Source: Escherichia coli
GTDB lineage: Bacteria; Pseudomonadota; Gammaproteobacteria; Enterobacterales; Enterobacteriaceae
NCBI RefSeq assembly: GCF_003334785.1
Contig: NZ_QOWV01000001.1
Length of the DNA stretch: 64,000 nucleotides
Reading direction: 5' to 3' (one strand)
Below are positions 5,069 to 22,413 of this stretch, piece after piece (the first letter of the stretch is position 1; each line of letters begins with the position of its first letter). The notes under the pieces were generated by a model. It saw only the letters and a list, made by a program, of their open reading frames with translations. It was not told where the DNA came from and did not search any database. The position numbers and the translations under genes were made by a program.

Positions 5069-5797
5069 TTAGTGAGAGAGATAGTTTTTAAATGCTTCGG
5101 TTTGCGGCTCGGTAAAGCAGCTCGCGTCGCCTTGTTCTACGATATGACCATTTTCCATATACACCACTCGGCTGGCGGTTTTACGCGCCACTTCAACTTC
5201 GTGGGTGACGATCACCTGGGTAATATTCGTTTCTGCCAGCTCACGAATGATGCTGACGATTTGTGCCGTAATTTCCGGGTCCAGTGCGGCGGTCGGTTCA
5301 TCGAACAGCAGTACCTGCGGTTCCATCATCAACGCACGGGCAATAGCAACACGCTGCTGCTGACCACCAGAAAGATGCAGCGGGTAACGATCGCTATAAG
5401 GTTTGAGACGCAGACGTTCCAGCAGTTTTTCTGCACGGGCCAGCGCCTGATCTTTACTCAACCCCAGTACACGGCAGGGCGCTTCAATCAGGTTTTGCTG
5501 CACGGTCAGATGCGGCCACAGGTTGTATTGCTGAAACACCATGCCAACGTTACGACGCAAATCGCGAATCGCTTTGTCAGAGGGTGTTTTGGTGAAATCG
5601 AAATGGTTGCCTGCAATGTTGAGCGTACCGGAGCGCGGCATCTCAAGCAGATTGAGTACACGCAGCAGCGAGCTTTTACCCGCGCCGCTGGGGCCAAGTA
5701 ACACCAGCGTTTCGCCCTGTGGGCAATCCAGCGTGATATCGAACAGCGCCTGATGCGCGCCGTAGAAGCAATTAATGCCGTTTAATTGAATACTCAT
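5069..5797 (-). CDS. artP: arginine ABC transporter ATP-binding protein ArtP
   Basis: 242 aa from [13 protein letters not shown]; Walker [13 protein letters not shown] signature [15 protein letters not shown]; the track ORF has a 33-codon upstream extension that I reject. Confidence 0.95.
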
Positions 5798-5852
5798 TGA
5801 CACTCGTATACTGGCAGTCTGATAGCTATTGAGGTCGAAGATAGTACCTTTG

Positions 5853-5870
5853 ACAGAATAATTATGCAAT
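5853..5870. promoter_or_regulatory. candidate ARG box upstream of artP
   Basis: acagaataattatgcaat is a partial match to the ArgR operator consensus about 60 bp upstream of the artP start. Confidence 0.25.
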
Positions 5871-6014
5871 ATTTCTGCTTTAAAAGTTAAAAGCAAAGCG
5901 CATTATTCAATAAACATAGCACAAAATAACGGGGGCGGTGGTCGGCGAGCATAAATGTCGGCATTCCTCACGAAATGCCGGACAATTTACGGGGTTTATT
6001 GGTTGATCAAGGCG

Positions 6015-6530
6015 TTAGCGATTCTCGATGGACTGACGGAGCGTACCCGCCGTGGCATGAACGCTACCGCCTAAGTAACGCACATCGTCGATGACCCAAC
6101 ACTGGCCTTCCTGAATCATTAACACTTCATCCTGCCAACCCTGGTCACCCTGTTTGAGATCCACGCGCAATGGAATGTTACGGGCATCACGATTAGGGAT
6201 AGTCGATGCACTGGCAACGTGGGCGCTATCTGGCAAGGTGGTTCGACTGGAGAATGGATCGTTGGTCAGTAGTTCCCGATGGTTATTATCCCGGGAGGCA
6301 TCGCTAAGCAGTGTCGCCAGTTTGTCGCTCAGATAAGGGCGCAAGGCGGTGATGTCGTTGCTGCGGTGCAAAATGCGGTAGTCATAAAATTGCTGGGCCA
6401 CGTTATCCGGGCCTCCTTCAACGCAAGGACCACTGCGTGTGCCGTTATCTTTATAAGCTGGAGTGACTGTGGTGCAGGCACTGAGGAGCAGTGCGCAGGG
6501 GATAAGCATTGTCAATTTGCTGTAGCGCAT
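6015..6530 (-). CDS. ybjP: lipoprotein YbjP
   Basis: 171 aa; signal peptide with lipobox LLSAC. Confidence 0.85.
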   Translation of the reverse strand: MRYSKLTMLIPCALLLSACTTVTPAYKDNGTRSGPCVEGGPDNVAQQFYDYRILHRSNDITALRPYLSDKLATLLSDASRDNNHRELLTNDPFSSRTTLPDSAHVASASTIPNRDARNIPLRVDLKQGDQGWQDEVLMIQEGQCWVIDDVRYLGGSVHATAGTLRQSIENR

Positions 6531-6655
6531 AATGATTTCCTTATAAGCGATCGCTCTGAAAGCGTTCTACGATAATAATGATATCCTTTCAATAATAGCG
6601 TATCAGTCTGATAATGCTTTTGAGATCGAAGGCTTAGCAAACAAGGAGATCGATC

Positions 6656-6979
6656 ATGCAATTTTCTACAACCCCAACTCTGGAAGGCCAGACCATCGTT
6701 GAATATTGCGGTGTGGTGACCGGCGAAGCGATTTTAGGTGCCAATATTTTCCGTGATTTCTTTGCCGGTATCCGCGATATCGTTGGCGGACGTTCCGGTG
6801 CGTATGAAAAAGAACTGCGTAAAGCACGGGAGATCGCCTTTGAGGAATTAGGCTCCCAGGCGCGGGCGCTGGGGGCCGATGCCGTCGTCGGTATTGATAT
6901 CGACTACGAAACGGTCGGGCAAAACGGCAGTATGCTGATGGTTAGCGTCAGCGGTACGGCGGTGAAAACGCGTCGATGA
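6656..6979 (+). CDS. ybjQ: UPF0145 family protein YbjQ
   Basis: 107-aa ORF; stop overlaps amiD start (ATGA). Confidence 0.85.
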
Positions 6980-7806
6980 GAAGATTCTTCTGGCTGGTCG
7001 CTGCCGCTCTGTTATTGGCAGGGTGTGCAGGCGAAAAAGGCATTGTCGAGAAAGAGGGATATCAGCTTGATACCCGACGCCAGGCGCAGGCGGCGTATCC
7101 GCGCATTAAAGTGCTGGTGATCCACTACACCGCAGATGATTTTGATAGCTCGCTGGCGACACTGACCGATAAGCAGGTCAGCTCGCATTATCTGGTCCCT
7201 GCGGTACCACCGCGATACAACGGTAAACCGCGCATCTGGCAACTGGTGCCGGAACAAGAACTGGCCTGGCATGCGGGGATTAGCGCCTGGCGCGGGGCAA
7301 CGCGCCTTAACGACACCTCTATTGGCATTGAGCTGGAAAACCGTGGCTGGCAAAAATCGGCCGGAGTGAAATATTTTGCCCCGTTTGAACCGGCACAGAT
7401 TCAGGCGCTTATTCCACTGGCGAAAGATATTATTGCCCGTTATCACATCAAGCCGGAAAACGTAGTGGCACATGCGGATATCGCACCGCAGCGCAAAGAC
7501 GATCCGGGGCCATTATTTCCCTGGCAGCAACTGGCGCAGCAGGGGATTGGTGCCTGGCCGGATGCGCAGCGGGTTAACTTTTACCTTGCCGGGCGCGCGC
7601 CGCACACACCGGTAGATACCGCGTCATTGCTGGAGCTTTTGGCGCGCTACGGTTATGACGTTAAACCTGATATGACACCGCGCGAGCAGCGGCGCGTGAT
7701 TATGGCATTCCAGATGCATTTCCGCCCGACGTTATATAACGGCGAAGCGGATGCAGAAACTCAGGCGATTGCCGAAGCATTGCTGGAGAAATACGGGCAG
7801 GATTAG
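6976..7806 (+). CDS. amiD: N-acetylmuramoyl-L-alanine amidase AmiD (lipoprotein)
   Basis: 276 aa; lipobox LLAGC; amidase_2/PGRP-like body. Confidence 0.9.
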
Positions 7807-8816
7807 CGCGGCAGTTTTCCGTGGTCGCGTAGCCAGGCGGCAGTTTTCTCGATACCTTCATCCAGGGTGATGACCGGCTGATAACCTAACTCTTCCTGCG
7901 CACGCGTAATATCCAGCGTAAAGTCAAAATTCAACTTGGAGACGCCGTAGTGGGTCAGCGGCGGCTCTTTTGCTGACTTGCGGCCTAAACGCTCCATGCT
8001 GCGGGCGATCATATCCAGCATCGGGTAGGGGACGGAACGAATACGACAGTCAATATTCAACTCGTCGATCAGCTTCTGCACGATGCTGCGCAGTGTGCGA
8101 TGCTCGCCGTTGGTGATGTTGTACACACGCCCGGAAGGTAGCTTATCGCAGGCTTCCTGGCTTGCCAGCCACATTGCGTGCACGGCATTTTCATAGTAGG
8201 TCATATCGACCAGCGCACTGCCGCCATGCGGTAACAGAATACTGCCGTAGTGGTGCATCATATGCGCCAGACGGGGAATAAAGACTTTATCGTGCGGTCC
8301 GAACAGACTTTGTGGGCGCAGAATAGTAAAGCGCGTTTGTGGATTCGCCTGCGAAAGCATATTGATCACTTCTTCGCTGGCTGCTTTGCTGCGGGCAAAC
8401 TCGTTGGCGAAGCGGTGAGGGCGAAAATCTTCTTTAATATCGCGATGGTGGTGATAATCGAAGTACAGGGAGGGGGAAGAGATATGAATAAAGTTACGCA
8501 CACCCCAGGCGACAGCCCATTCACCCAGGCGGCGAGTGGCGCGAACGTTAGCCAGATCGAAAGCCTGTTGTGTCCCCCAGGGTGAGGTAAAGCTGGAGCA
8601 GTGCCACAGCGTATCAATGCCCGCGAGCATCACTTTAGCTTGTGATGAAACCAGCTCGGTCAGATCCGCCGGAACAAACTCTGCGCCCATTTTTTCCAGC
8701 AATTTGCCCATTGCCTCGTTGCGACCGGTCGCTCGCACGCTGATGCCTTTCTGGCATAAAAACTCTACCGCGTTTCGACCTAAGCCGCTGGTGGCGCCGG
8801 TAACCAGTACCTTCAT
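7803..8816 (-). CDS. ybjS: NAD-dependent epimerase/dehydratase family protein YbjS
   Basis: 337 aa from [17 protein letters not shown] (Rossmann GxxGxxG); track ORF has a 21-codon upstream extension. Confidence 0.8.
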
Positions 8817-8914
8817 ATCAATCCACTGTTGTTGAGAAAATAACGTGCGCATTCTTCCGTGATTTCCCCCATGATGCAATGGGAAACATGAAAGAATAAC
8901 GCAGGTTTTGTCGA

Positions 8915-10345
8915 TTAATCTGTGCTTTGTTCTGCCAGTCTGGCGATTTGTTTTGCCATTCCGCGAAAAATAAACAGATGCGCGGGGATCATCAATAACC
9001 AGTAAAACAGCCCCGGCATACCGTGCGGATGCCAGAAAGCGCGGACATCGATAGTACGATAGTCGCCTTTATCTTCCAGGCTAAAACACAGTCGTCCCAG
9101 CCCCGGCGCTTTCATGCCAAATAACAACGTAAGTTGTTTTTCCGGTTCAACGACAATCACTTTCCAGCTATCCACCGCATCGCCAGTCTGTAAATATTCG
9201 CGCTCCGGGCGGCCTTTCGCCAGCTTATGACCGATCGCGCGGTCCATCAACGCCCGTGTCTGCCACAAAATATTGCCAAAGAAATAACGCTCTTTACCGC
9301 CGATTTGGTTCACTACCTGCCATAAAGCAGCAAGGCTGGCGGACGTTTTAACGGTAAACCCCGCCTGTTTGGCAAAATAACCGTACTCCGGTCGCCAGCG
9401 GGCAAAGGCCTGAGCGTCGTAGCCCCAGTCGCTGGAGTTGACCAGTTTTTCCTCCTCTTTCAACGTGCTACGTACCGCGTCATCGAAAGCGATCAGCCGT
9501 TGTGGGATGAGTGCACGTAGCGCGGTATCATCCGCCAGCAGATCGTGTTTCAGCCCCTGAATCAACGCCCTGGCGGTGGTGGGCGGTACGGAAGTAATCA
9601 CATTGAGAAACCACACCGAAATCCAGCGGGTGGGGAGGGGGATGGGGATCAACCAGCGGCGCTTACCGCTCACCGCCATAAAATGTTCAAACTGTTGCTG
9701 ATAACTGAGCACCTCTGGTCCGGCGGCTTCGAAGATGCGGTGTTCGCTGGCCGGATGATCTAACAACGCAACCAGATAGTGCAGCAAGTTTTCCAGCGCA
9801 ATGGGCGTGGTGCGTGAACGAACCCAGCGCGGAGGCGTTAAGACTGGCAGGTTGTAGACCATATCGCGCATGACTTCGAACGCCGCGGAACCTGCGCCAA
9901 CGATAATTCCGGCCCGCAGTTCGGTCACGGGTACATTCGCTTCACGCAGAATGTCCGCCGTAGCCTGACGAGCACGCAGATGATCCGACTGCTCATGTGG
10001 CGGGGCCTGCAACGAACTAAGAAAGATTAATTGCTTAACTGGTACTTCACGTAGCGCATCGCGGACGTTGAGAGCCACCTGGCGCTCCTGAGCGATAAAA
10101 TCGCCGCCTTCGCCCATGCTGTGCACCAGAAAATAGACCGTATCGATATCCTGCAACAGGGCCGGTAGGTTATCCGGCCAGCTGAGATCGACTTTATGGC
10201 AACTGACGTTTGCCAGTTGCAGCTTTGCAAGCCTGTCGACATGACGTGCCGCCGCCAGGATCTGATGCCCTTGCTGGCTGAGTGTGCGCACCAGATGCTG
10301 ACCAATGTAGCCACTGGCACCGAGAACTAAAATGCGTTGCGGCAC
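8915..10345 (-). CDS. ybjT: NAD(P)-binding (atypical SDR) protein YbjT
   Basis: Rossmann motif [11 protein letters not shown] near N-terminus; GTG start inferred at 10343-10345 giving 476 aa and removing the overlap with ltaE. Confidence 0.8.
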
Positions 10346-18535: not shown

Positions 18536-20194
18536 ATGATTCTTGAGCGCGTTGAAATTGTGGGTTTTCGCGGTATCAACCGTTTGTCGTTGATGCTGGA
18601 ACAAAACAACGTCCTGATTGGGGAGAACGCGTGGGGTAAATCCAGCTTGCTGGACGCCTTAACTCTGCTGCTATCGCCAGAATCAGATCTCTACCATTTT
18701 GAGCGCGACGATTTCTGGTTCCCGCCGGGAGATATCAACGGGCGAGAACATCATCTGCATATTATTTTGACCTTCCGCGAATCGCTGCCAGGCCGACATC
18801 GGGTTCGCCGTTATCGGCCGCTGGAAGCGTGCTGGACGCCATGCACCGATGGCTATCACCGTATTTTTTATCGTCTGGAAGGGGAGAGTGCGGAAGACGG
18901 CAGCGTGATGACACTGCGCAGTTTTCTCGATAAAGACGGACATCCGATTGATGTCGAGGATATTAACGATCAGGCACGCCATCTGGTGCGTTTAATGCCG
19001 GTGCTGCGCTTGCGTGATGCCCGTTTTATGCGCCGTATTCGTAACGGCACGGTGCCAAATGTCCCTAATGTGGAAGTCACCGCGCGCCAGCTCGATTTCC
19101 TCGCCCGTGAGTTATCCTCACATCCGCAAAATCTCTCTGATGGGCAGATTCGTCAGGGACTTTCCGCAATGGTACAGCTGCTTGAGCATTATTTCTCTGA
19201 GCAGGGGGCCGGACAGGCGCGATATCGTTTAATGCGGCGGCGAGCCAGCAATGAGCAACGAAGCTGGCGCTATCTGGATATCATCAACCGGATGATTGAC
19301 CGACCTGGTGGGCGCTCGTATCGGGTTATTTTGCTCGGCCTATTTGCTACTTTGTTGCAGGCAAAAGGCACATTGCGACTGGATAAAGACGCCCGTCCAT
19401 TGTTGCTGATCGAAGATCCAGAAACCCGTTTACACCCCATTATGCTTTCAGTTGCCTGGCATCTGTTGAATCTTCTGCCATTGCAGCGCATTGCCACCAC
19501 CAACTCGGGTGAGTTGCTTTCGTTAACGCCGGTAGAGCATGTTTGCCGACTGGTACGTGAGTCCTCGCGCGTTGCCGCCTGGCGTCTGGGGCCGAGTGGC
19601 TTGAGTACCGAAGATAGCCGACGCATATCCTTTCACATTCGTTTTAACCGTCCGTCATCGCTGTTTGCACGCTGCTGGTTGCTGGTGGAAGGGGAAACGG
19701 AAACCTGGGTTATCAATGAACTGGCGCGTCAGTGCGGACATCATTTTGATGCCGAAGGGATCAAGGTCATTGAGTTTGCCCAGTCCGGGCTAAAGCCACT
19801 GGTTAAATTTGCCCGCCGAATGGGGATTGAATGGCATGTACTGGTCGATGGCGATGAAGCAGGGAAGAAATATGCCGCTACGGTACGCAGCCTGTTGAAT
19901 AACGATCGGGAAGCCGAACGAGAACATTTAACGGCGTTACCGGCGCTGGATATGGAACATTTTATGTATCGCCAGGGATTTTCCGATGTGTTCCACCGCA
20001 TGGCGCAAATCCCGGAAAATGTACCGATGAATCTACGCAAAATTATCTCGAAAGCGATCCATCGCTCTTCCAAACCCGATCTTGCCATTGAAGTGGCAAT
20101 GGAGGCAGGACGTCGTGGTGTGGACTCCGTACCGACGCTGCTGAAAAAAATGTTCTCACGCGTGCTGTGGCTGGCGCGCGGTCGCGCGGATTAA
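18536..20194 (+). CDS. ybjD: OLD-family ATPase-Toprim protein YbjD
   Basis: 552 aa; N-terminal P-loop GENAWGKSS, Walker-B-like LLLIEDPE, C-terminal Toprim-like E (LLVEGETE) and DxD (VLVDGDEAG). Confidence 0.85.
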   Translation: MILERVEIVGFRGINRLSLMLEQNNVLIGENAWGKSSLLDALTLLLSPESDLYHFERDDFWFPPGDINGREHHLHIILTFRESLPGRHRVRRYRPLEACWTPCTDGYHRIFYRLEGESAEDGSVMTLRSFLDKDGHPIDVEDINDQARHLVRLMPVLRLRDARFMRRIRNGTVPNVPNVEVTARQLDFLARELSSHPQNLSDGQIRQGLSAMVQLLEHYFSEQGAGQARYRLMRRRASNEQRSWRYLDIINRMIDRPGGRSYRVILLGLFATLLQAKGTLRLDKDARPLLLIEDPETRLHPIMLSVAWHLLNLLPLQRIATTNSGELLSLTPVEHVCRLVRESSRVAAWRLGPSGLSTEDSRRISFHIRFNRPSSLFARCWLLVEGETETWVINELARQCGHHFDAEGIKVIEFAQSGLKPLVKFARRMGIEWHVLVDGDEAGKKYAATVRSLLNNDREAEREHLTALPALDMEHFMYRQGFSDVFHRMAQIPENVPMNLRKIISKAIHRSSKPDLAIEVAMEAGRRGVDSVPTLLKKMFSRVLWLARGRAD

Positions 20195-21297: not shown

Positions 21298-22413
21298 ATG
21301 AAAAAGCGGAAAACCGTGAAGAAGCGTTACGTTATTGCGCTGGTGATAGTCATCGCCGGACTGATTACGTTATGGAGAATTCTTAACGCACCCGTGCCGA
21401 CTTATCAGACGCTGATTGTGCGCCCCGGTGATTTACAGCAAAGCGTGCTGGCGACCGGAAAGCTGGACGCGCTGCGTAAGGTTGATGTGGGCGCGCAGGT
21501 CAGCGGTCAGTTGAAAACTCTGTCGGTGGCGATTGGCGATAAAGTAAAAAAAGACCAGCTTTTAGGGGTTATTGATCCTGAACAGGCTGAAAACCAGATT
21601 AAGGAGGTCGAAGCAACGCTGATGGAGCTACGTGCGCAGCGGCAGCAGGCGGAAGCGGAGCTGAAACTGGCGCGGGTGACGTATTCCCGTCAGCAACGTC
21701 TGGCACAAACGAAGGCTGTTTCACAGCAGGATCTCGACACCGCCGCGACGGAGATGGCTGTGAAACAGGCGCAAATTGGCACCATTGACGCGCAAATCAA
21801 GCGCAATCAGGCTTCTCTCGATACGGCTAAAACCAATCTCGATTACACTCGCATCGTTGCCCCGATGGCCGGGGAAGTCACGCAAATCACCACTCTGCAA
21901 GGCCAGACGGTGATTGCCGCACAACAAGCACCGAACATTCTGACGCTGGCAGATATGAGCACCATGCTGGTAAAAGCGCAGGTTTCTGAAGCGGATGTAA
22001 TCCACCTGAAGCCGGGGCAAAAAGCCTGGTTTACGGTGCTTGGCGATCCACTGACGCGCTACGAGGGGCAAATCAAGGATGTACTACCGACGCCGGAAAA
22101 GGTTAACGACGCTATTTTCTATTACGCCCGTTTTGAAGTCCCCAACCCCAATGGTTTGCTGCGGCTGGATATGACTGCGCAAGTGCATATTCAGCTCACC
22201 GATGTGAAAAATGTGCTGACGATCCCTCTGTCGGCGTTAGGCGATCCGGTTGGCGATAATCGTTATAAAGTCAAATTGTTGCGTAATGGTGAAACACGCG
22301 AGCGTGAAGTGACGATTGGCGCACGTAACGATACCGATGTTGAGATTGTCAAAGGGCTTGAAGCGGGCGATGAAGTGGTGATTGGTGAGGCCAAACCAGG
22401 AGCTGCACAATGA
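21298..22413 (+). CDS. macA: macrolide efflux periplasmic adaptor MacA
   Basis: 371 aa from [18 protein letters not shown]; membrane-fusion-protein coiled-coil and barrel regions; stop overlaps macB start. Confidence 0.9.

Follow-up and report, generated by a model that had tools for sequence, protein, structure and literature searches.

Gene layout at the ybjQ-amiD locus

The DNA analysed here is a stretch of 64,000 nt from Escherichia coli (the window), in which the small gene ybjQ is directly followed by amiD. A sequence match over 3001 nt at this locus showed 100% identity to E. coli K-12 MG1655, and the ~3-kb stretch was matched in 5,425 of the 5,426 complete genomes of E. coli. RefSeq gives the gene order as artP (-), ybjP (-), ybjQ (+), amiD (+), ybjS (-) and ybjT (-). 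The MG1655 RefSeq annotation and the list of open reading frames agree on the four genes and on their ends (Table 1), and the gene identities proposed earlier from the letters alone (the sequence-only reading) proved correct by RefSeq annotation, open reading frames and family profiles. A table based on an operon database groups 'amiD,ybjQ' into a single operon unit (PMC4448311). The locus is the already known ybjQ-amiD two-gene operon of E. coli K-12, with genes, gene ends and operon in the standard annotation.

Upstream and in divergent orientation lies ybjP, whose product has a lipobox (L-S-A-C, Thr at +2) and scores 327 bits against the NCBIfam equivalog NF007824 (cutoff 200). The spacer between ybjP and ybjQ is the presumed promoter region. 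Promoter matches there reach consensus level only (6509-6536 on the + strand, 6606-6578 on the - strand), and they were not taken as evidence, as the consensus scan for promoters and terminators gave counts not above those of shuffled sequence. The spacer carries an insertion in ~20% of E. coli genomes, and the alignment to ~1,127 E. coli genomes is interrupted in it at window positions ~6548-6600. On the other side, ybjS starts with the annotated ATG at 8816, and its product matched only SDR-family models in NCBIfam, all of them sub-threshold.

An Rfam scan of positions 5500-9200 (E <= 1) returned two sub-threshold chance matches only. One of them, CRISPR-DR53 at 5949-5985, falls on the same place as a terminator-like hairpin of ybjP; the other, an archaeal sRNA model, was likewise rejected. 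Neither YbjQ nor YbjP matched any of the PADLOC defence models.

Table 1. Features of the ybjQ-amiD locus and overlapping gene pairs used for comparison (positions in the window)
Feature	Position	Strand	Description	Basis
ybjP	6015-6530	-	171-aa lipoprotein, divergent from ybjQ	ORF, NCBIfam, RefSeq
ybjP/ybjQ intergenic region	6531-6655		125 nt, divergent; presumed promoter region	
ybjQ Shine-Dalgarno	6643-6648	+	AAGGAG, 7 nt before ATG	anti-SD duplex -7.1 kcal/mol
ybjQ	6656-6979	+	107-aa YbjQ_1/UPF0145 protein	Pfam, NCBIfam, RefSeq
SD-like motif in ybjQ 3' end	6958-6965	+	GGCGGUGA / GGCGGTGA, 10 nt before amiD ATG	
ATGA stop/start overlap	6976-6979	+	ybjQ TGA 6977-6979, amiD ATG 6976-6978; candidate termination-reinitiation site	
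AmiD signal peptide and lipobox Cys17	6976-7026	+	coding region	translation
amiD	6976-7806	+	276-aa N-acetylmuramoyl-L-alanine amidase, outer-membrane lipoprotein	Pfam, crystal-sequence identity
TTAG stop/stop overlap	7803-7806		amiD TAG 7804-7806 (+); ybjS TAA (-), read as TTA 7803-7805 on +	
ybjS	7803-8816	-	337-aa NAD-dependent epimerase/dehydratase-family protein, convergent with amiD	ORF, RefSeq
ybjX/ybjD convergent overlap	20191-20194		TTAA	
macA/macB overlap	22410-22413		ATGA	
artQ/artM overlap			1 nt	

The two proteins of the operon

YbjQ gave a full-length match above the curated thresholds to the YbjQ_1/UPF0145 family, both in Pfam (PF01906, E = 6.8e-39, 133 bits, residues 1-104) and as the NCBIfam equivalog NF002776 (218.5 bits, cutoff 160). 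The crystallised, folded domain of a homologue (PDB 1Y2I) matches YbjQ residues 1-107. In the translation, a signal peptide is absent from the N-terminus, residues 1-107 being the folded domain, and the protein is predicted to be cytoplasmic. Relatives of YbjQ have been described as pentamers (PMC4092069). The family is large (6,911 representative clusters at E <= 1e-3) and is labelled by Pfam as a putative heavy-metal binder, a name which is a structural inference. In the literature on ybjQ, ybjR and UPF0145 we found no paper that gives a function for YbjQ or a link between YbjQ and AmiD.

AmiD cleaves peptides off MurNAc and anhydro-MurNAc. Its abundance in the tables of Mori 2021 is ~1-2.6e-5, in unlabelled columns that presumably give the proteome mass fraction. 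The protein encoded here matches Pfam Amidase_2 (PF01510, E = 7.4e-30), and its residues 18-276 are identical at every position to the crystallised AmiD (PDB 2BH7/2WKX/3D2Y). It has the zinc ligands of an AmiD-type Amidase_2 enzyme, H50, H166 and D176 (as in PMC5543032), of which H50 is visible in the translation. The lipobox L14-A-G-C17 agrees with the description in PMC5543032 and, together with a residue other than Asp at +2 (A18), marks the N-terminus as a lipoprotein signal peptide. The ATG of amiD is the sole in-frame start, and it yields this canonical signal peptide. AmiD is known as an outer-membrane-anchored zinc amidase of broad specificity with an unclear physiological role (PMC5543032). 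In a ΔampG ΔamiD strain, large peptidoglycan fragments build up in the periplasm and are released into the medium (PMC4302634). A preprint on E. coli amidases discusses neither AmiD nor the ybjQ-amiD operon.

Probable translational coupling at the ybjQ/amiD junction

The stop codon of ybjQ and the start codon of amiD overlap in an ATGA, a feature already pointed out by the sequence-only reading and confirmed by sequence, script and annotation. The two genes thus form a co-directional stop/start overlap of the -4/-1 nt class. An SD-like motif lies in the 3' end of ybjQ, and its form GGCGGTGA is a possible ribosome-binding element for amiD. For GGCGGUGA, the duplex with the anti-SD was calculated at -9.1 kcal/mol, which is stronger than that of the ybjQ Shine-Dalgarno. 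The 100 nt from 6926 to 7025 fold with -40 kcal/mol (z = -2.58), and both the motif and the amiD AUG are within predicted local hairpins in this fold of the naked mRNA. The contrast between the strong Shine-Dalgarno of ybjQ and the merely SD-like, distant motif of amiD is a further point in favour of coupling.

According to published experiments, a spacing of 20 nt nearly abolishes coupling (PMC10666635), and 14 of 14 native overlapping pairs of Huber et al. were strictly coupled, as quoted in the same source. Since native overlapping pairs behave in this way and a 20-nt spacer nearly removes the effect, amiD is likely to be translationally coupled to ybjQ in E. coli.

It is also conceivable that the ATGA reflects compaction only, and that ribosomes initiate on amiD independently at its own SD-like element, or that an internal promoter drives its transcription, with no meaningful coupling in either case. 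The strong pairing of GGCGGUGA with the anti-SD speaks for this explanation. On the other hand, 13 nt separate the end of the motif's GGCGG core (6958-6962) from the AUG, a long distance for ribosomes to initiate efficiently de novo, and the core is predicted to be base-paired. Furthermore, a promoter-like site on the + strand inside ybjQ was not found in the consensus scan, and the overlapping E. coli pairs that have been tested were, as far as PMC10666635 quotes them, strictly coupled. We regard independent expression of amiD as rather unlikely.

Conservation of the junction across species

One genome per species was scanned with a 7-sequence alignment of YbjQ, an alignment of 25 sequences being too diverse. 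The loci considered are the best 80 of at least 552 hits, mostly from Enterobacterales, and 78 of them were informative. Around each locus AmiD, YbjP, YbjS, YbjT and ArtP were located in fetched flanks of ~4 kb per side (1.3 kb downstream in locus L077). Among these best 80 hits, the stop/start overlap was present in 66 of the 78 informative loci; amiD followed on the same strand after a gap in six and was on the opposite strand in one, and an AmiD homologue was not found in the fetched flanks of the remaining five. Of the 72 loci with amiD downstream of ybjQ in the same orientation, 66 thus keep the overlap. It occurs in five forms within the same best 80 hits (41 ATGA, 18 TGATG, 4 TTGA, 2 GTGA and 1 TAATG) and is retained across Enterobacteriaceae, Erwiniaceae, Rahnella and Dickeya. 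Because the overlap persists despite this turnover, its survival points to the maintenance of tight coupling or, failing that, of tight spacing, and its retention in 66 of the 78 loci makes a coupled two-gene operon likely. Within the best 80 hits, GCGGTG is the sequence of the Ala-Val codons underlying the SD-like motif in 37 of 65 loci with the overlap versus 1 of 11 uncoupled loci, an enrichment which is suggestive at most, as it is confounded by phylogeny.

The gap between ybjQ and amiD is 25 nt in Pectobacterium and 49 nt in Brenneria (25-49 nt overall), and 200 nt in Yersinia nurmii. In Serratia grimesii a 528-aa open reading frame on the opposite strand is inserted between the two genes, and in Hafnia paralvei ybjQ is inverted, which leaves ybjQ and amiD divergent and 40 nt apart. 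The 6-nt gap in Pantoea rodasii (L065) is ambiguous and possibly caused by an assembly frameshift. In the fetched flanks of Xenorhabdus and Budvicia amiD was not found near ybjQ, and the same applies to the three scan loci outside Enterobacterales, which come from MAGs labelled Chloroflexi, Omnitrophota and Gammaproteobacteria. For Yersinia pestis, ybjR (amiD) has been reported to be regulated by PhoP (PMC2650801). Independent expression of amiD gains some ground here, as lineages with gaps of 25-200 nt evidently express amiD without an overlap and the Yersinia gene has its own PhoP-dependent regulation.

The sequence-only reading had called the two proteins obligately co-translated. Coupling as such is plausible, given the overlap in 66 of 72 same-strand loci (best 80 of at least 552 hits) and the structured start region. 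The word obligate goes too far, since GGCGGUGA lies near the amiD AUG, several lineages keep both genes uncoupled and PhoP is reported to regulate the gene in Y. pestis; judged by these genomes, the coupling of ybjQ and amiD is not obligate.

Overlaps in the neighbourhood and the convergent amiD/ybjS end

To judge how ordinary such junctions are, neighbouring gene pairs were inspected in 50 kb of the window with annotation. Overlaps occur in this region in three of 29 co-directional neighbour pairs (macA/macB, ybjQ/amiD and artQ/artM), and of the six convergent pairs, two share 4 nt (ybjX/ybjD and amiD/ybjS). This matches the genome-wide picture: no co-directional junction is more frequent in E. 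coli than the -4 ATGA, and of 2,987 co-directional pairs, 707 (24%) are spaced within -8 to +6 nt (PMC10666635). Both overlaps at the locus are real but ordinary.

The second overlap, the TTAG shared by the stop codons of amiD and ybjS, had been noted before as well, and both sequence and script confirm it. Among the best 80 of at least 552 hits, 43 loci have a convergent ybjS; an overlap of 4 nt (TTAG, TTAA or CTAG) was seen in 12 of them, and the two genes are 0-629 nt apart in the remaining 31. In Enterobacter, Erwinia and Pantoea, ybjS does not adjoin amiD. No convincing intrinsic terminator was detected within ~80 nt of the amiD or ybjS stop (fold z +0.4 and +0.7). With zero intergenic space and no convincing terminator nearby, the transcripts of the two genes probably overlap at their 3' ends. 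The same two observations would fit a regulatory role of the TTAG, in which amiD and ybjS repress each other by transcriptional interference or antisense pairing. This is extremely improbable in our view, given that the 4-nt overlap occurs in only 12 of those 43 loci, that ybjS is not next to amiD in the three genera named above and that ybjX/ybjD shows a similar overlap in the same window. The TTAG is a by-product of tight gene packing, and nothing suggests selection on it.

Evaluation of a functional link between YbjQ and AmiD

From the overlap, the sequence-only reading had also derived a functional link of YbjQ and AmiD in cell-wall recycling. An overlap of 4 nt alone says little about such a link: subunits of complexes are encoded by 30.4% of the closely spaced E. 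coli pairs, and the other 69.6%, about 70%, do not encode complexes (PMC10666635). Among the best 80 of at least 552 hits, ybjQ adjoins amiD in 72 of 80 loci, and it adjoins the unrelated artP in 72 of 80 as well. As adjacency to amiD is no better kept than adjacency to artP, the arrangement looks like synteny inherited within one order rather than repeated selection.

Outside Enterobacterales, AmiD was a neighbour in none of 13 YbjQ contexts, a small sample which combines the three loci of the genome scan with 10 loci from exact look-ups of eight YbjQ homologues. These eight distant homologues are 58-76% identical to YbjQ, and their neighbours include a HIT protein with a GST, biotin carboxylase, spermidine synthase, an ABC ATPase, patatin and small membrane proteins. 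An amidase was not among the neighbours at any of the 10 loci; in three of the look-ups the contig was short (1-2.5 kb) and carried incomplete neighbours, which were not AmiD-like. In the reverse direction, no YbjQ gene was found near an AmpDh2-type amidase in three distinct contexts (four loci from Pseudomonas and Stutzerimonas). In these 13 YbjQ and three AmpDh2 contexts, an adjacency of YbjQ and Amidase_2 genes did not recur in phylogenetically independent lineages. Elsewhere, YbjQ homologues also occur in 4-nt overlaps with unrelated genes, so tight packing is seemingly a habit of the small ybjQ gene and not specific to amiD. The pairing of ybjQ and amiD looks like a gene order inherited within Enterobacterales and specific to this order, rather than a sign of a shared pathway, and these contexts lend no support to a functional link in cell-wall recycling, a proposal that is weakly supported as a whole.

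What would a true partnership look like? Coupling would fix the ratio of YbjQ to AmiD, and YbjQ could act in AmiD biogenesis, for example if it held the precursor or loaded it with metal ahead of export, or in cytoplasmic muropeptide recycling. Several observations are in agreement with such a role. Although its sequence turns over, the overlap is kept in most Enterobacteriaceae, Erwiniaceae, Rahnella and Dickeya, and this persistence could reflect selection for a fixed stoichiometry, a feature enriched in proteins that act as partners. Close spacing is ~4.5-fold enriched for complex subunits in E. coli (30% of close versus 7% of distant pairs; PMC10666635). Pfam labels the YbjQ family as a putative heavy-metal binder, and AmiD is a zinc enzyme. 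There is also a precedent in the overlapping pair ydbH-ynbE, which is without annotated function in PMC10666635 and whose two proteins are reported in a 2024 paper to form a complex.

Against this stand the topology and the comparative data. Since YbjQ lacks a signal peptide and AmiD is exported to the outer membrane as a lipoprotein, a direct or stable complex of YbjQ with mature AmiD is topologically unlikely; AmiD would, moreover, normally take up its zinc after export. Both genes are kept in Hafnia, Serratia and Yersinia with co-transcription broken, and in Pectobacterium and Brenneria with the tight spacing lost. The absence of co-localisation outside Enterobacterales in either direction (13 YbjQ and three AmpDh2 contexts), the equal conservation of the artP adjacency and the literature cited above, which yielded no paper linking the two proteins, point the same way. 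On balance, we consider it quite improbable that YbjQ and AmiD are true partners. The narrower proposal, namely that YbjQ is a dedicated AmiD partner of Enterobacterales which would support precursor production or export competence, or sense muropeptides, with the overlap fixing the ratio, appears highly improbable. If a partnership did exist, it would provide the first function for the widespread UPF0145 family and a regulator for the AmiD amidase.

For experiments on this question, a pull-down or two-hybrid assay with YbjQ and AmiD would disregard their different compartments. Structures have already been solved for both proteins or their close homologues. Knockout phenotypes of ybjQ need to be checked for polarity on amiD, since the coupling itself would cause such polarity and thereby confound the phenotype of a ybjQ mutant.

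Proposed expression of the operon

Taken together, the locus is very probably an ordinary ybjQ-amiD operon, which is likely expressed by termination-reinitiation, gives no sign of a shared pathway and has the TTAG as a by-product of packing. In this model ybjQ would be translated first from its strong Shine-Dalgarno. Ribosomes that end at the ybjQ UGA most likely reinitiate at the overlapping amiD AUG (AUGA), and the same ribosomes would open the local hairpin that hides the amiD start region. As a result of reinitiation and hairpin opening, AmiD synthesis would largely be tied to the translation of ybjQ. AmiD is then exported, receives its lipid at Cys17 and becomes attached to the outer membrane, where it acts as known from the literature, and YbjQ is expected to remain in the cytoplasm as a small oligomer.

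Comparison with known systems

The kind of relationship envisaged for YbjQ and AmiD is known from amidase-activator pairs, namely EnvC, NlpD and ActS with AmiA/B/C and ActH with LytH (PMC10268282, PMC9245657). As described there, the amidases of those pairs are LytC-type and their partners are direct-acting periplasmic or membrane proteins, whereas AmiD belongs to the Amidase_2 enzymes and YbjQ lacks an export signal. On the side of the enzyme, the periplasmic AmpDh2/AmpDh3 of Pseudomonas aeruginosa share with AmiD the Amidase_2 and PG_binding_1 domains, a lipoprotein-type N-terminus and 41-44% identity. Unlike amiD, genes of the AmpDh2 type lie between a GGDEF cyclase gene and kinB, without a neighbour of the YbjQ family.

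With regard to the junction, ybjQ-amiD resembles the termination-reinitiation pairs hyfH-hyfI, menD-menH and ydbH-ynbE (Huber et al.; PMC10666635), as it is likewise co-directional with a -4 ATGA and has the downstream start embedded in the upstream coding sequence; for ybjQ-amiD the coupling is likely. In contrast to many such pairs, YbjQ and AmiD are predicted to be in different compartments. Compared with the annotated operon of E. coli K-12 (b0866-b0867) there is no difference: it is the same locus, with 100% identical DNA and identical gene ends and AmiD residues 18-276, to which the present analysis adds solely the comparative description of the junction.

Gene order around ybjQ and amiD

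In about 1,127 of 5,425 E. coli genomes, the match to the window is broken at ~6548-6600, in the intergenic region between ybjP and ybjQ. Strain YDC107 carries a 2.6-kb insertion that separates these two genes (locus L087, 6435-9061), and its ybjQ-amiD junction is the same as in the window. The intact reading frame inside the insertion (see table) gave a single NCBIfam match, a weak one to a repeat region.

Features in the window and in the loci of other strains and species
Feature	Locus	Position	Strand	Remark
Stable hairpin	window	~5955-5992	minus	some 30 nt beyond the ybjP stop codon
ybjX/ybjD overlap	window	20191-20194		4-nt convergent stop/stop, TTAA; second of its kind in the window
macA/macB overlap	window	22410-22413		stop/start, ATGA; second of its kind in the window
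593-aa ORF in insertion	E. coli YDC107, L087	7070-8851	same as ybjQ	intact; RefSeq: partial pentapeptide-repeat pseudogene
Inverted ybjQ	Hafnia paralvei, L062	3103-4321		ybjQ and amiD start codons back to back
528-aa ORF	Serratia grimesii, L069	4368-5954	minus	between ybjQ and amiD; lipoprotein-like N-terminus
ybjQ-to-amiD spacer	Yersinia nurmii, L071	4325-4524		200 nt

Downstream of ybjP, the hairpin is built on an 8-bp core, GGCAUUUC....GGAAUGCC. Flanking pairs lengthen this core, and AUGC follows. Folding of window positions 5930-6020 gave z = -1.8, and the structure probably serves as the terminator of ybjP. It also accounts for a weak, sub-threshold match to the Rfam family 'CRISPR-DR53' at 5949-5985.

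Arrangement in other lineages

Distant homologues of YbjQ were also observed in 4-nt overlaps, with unrelated neighbours, namely a HIT protein, an unannotated 456-aa protein and a membrane protein (L083, 2579-3327; L086, 1634-3330; L097, 474-1051).

The arrangement of ybjQ and amiD is altered in the loci of Hafnia paralvei, Serratia grimesii and Yersinia nurmii. In Hafnia paralvei, only 40 nt lie between the two start codons, which leaves scant space for two promoters; ybjP is missing from this locus, in which the convergent genes amiD and ybjS share 7 nt. The reading frame inserted in Serratia grimesii had no match in the NCBIfam search. According to a published report (PMC2650801), PhoP regulates ybjR/amiD in Yersinia pestis and does not do so in Salmonella, and the 200-nt spacer in Yersinia nurmii is consistent with the regulation published for Y. 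pestis.
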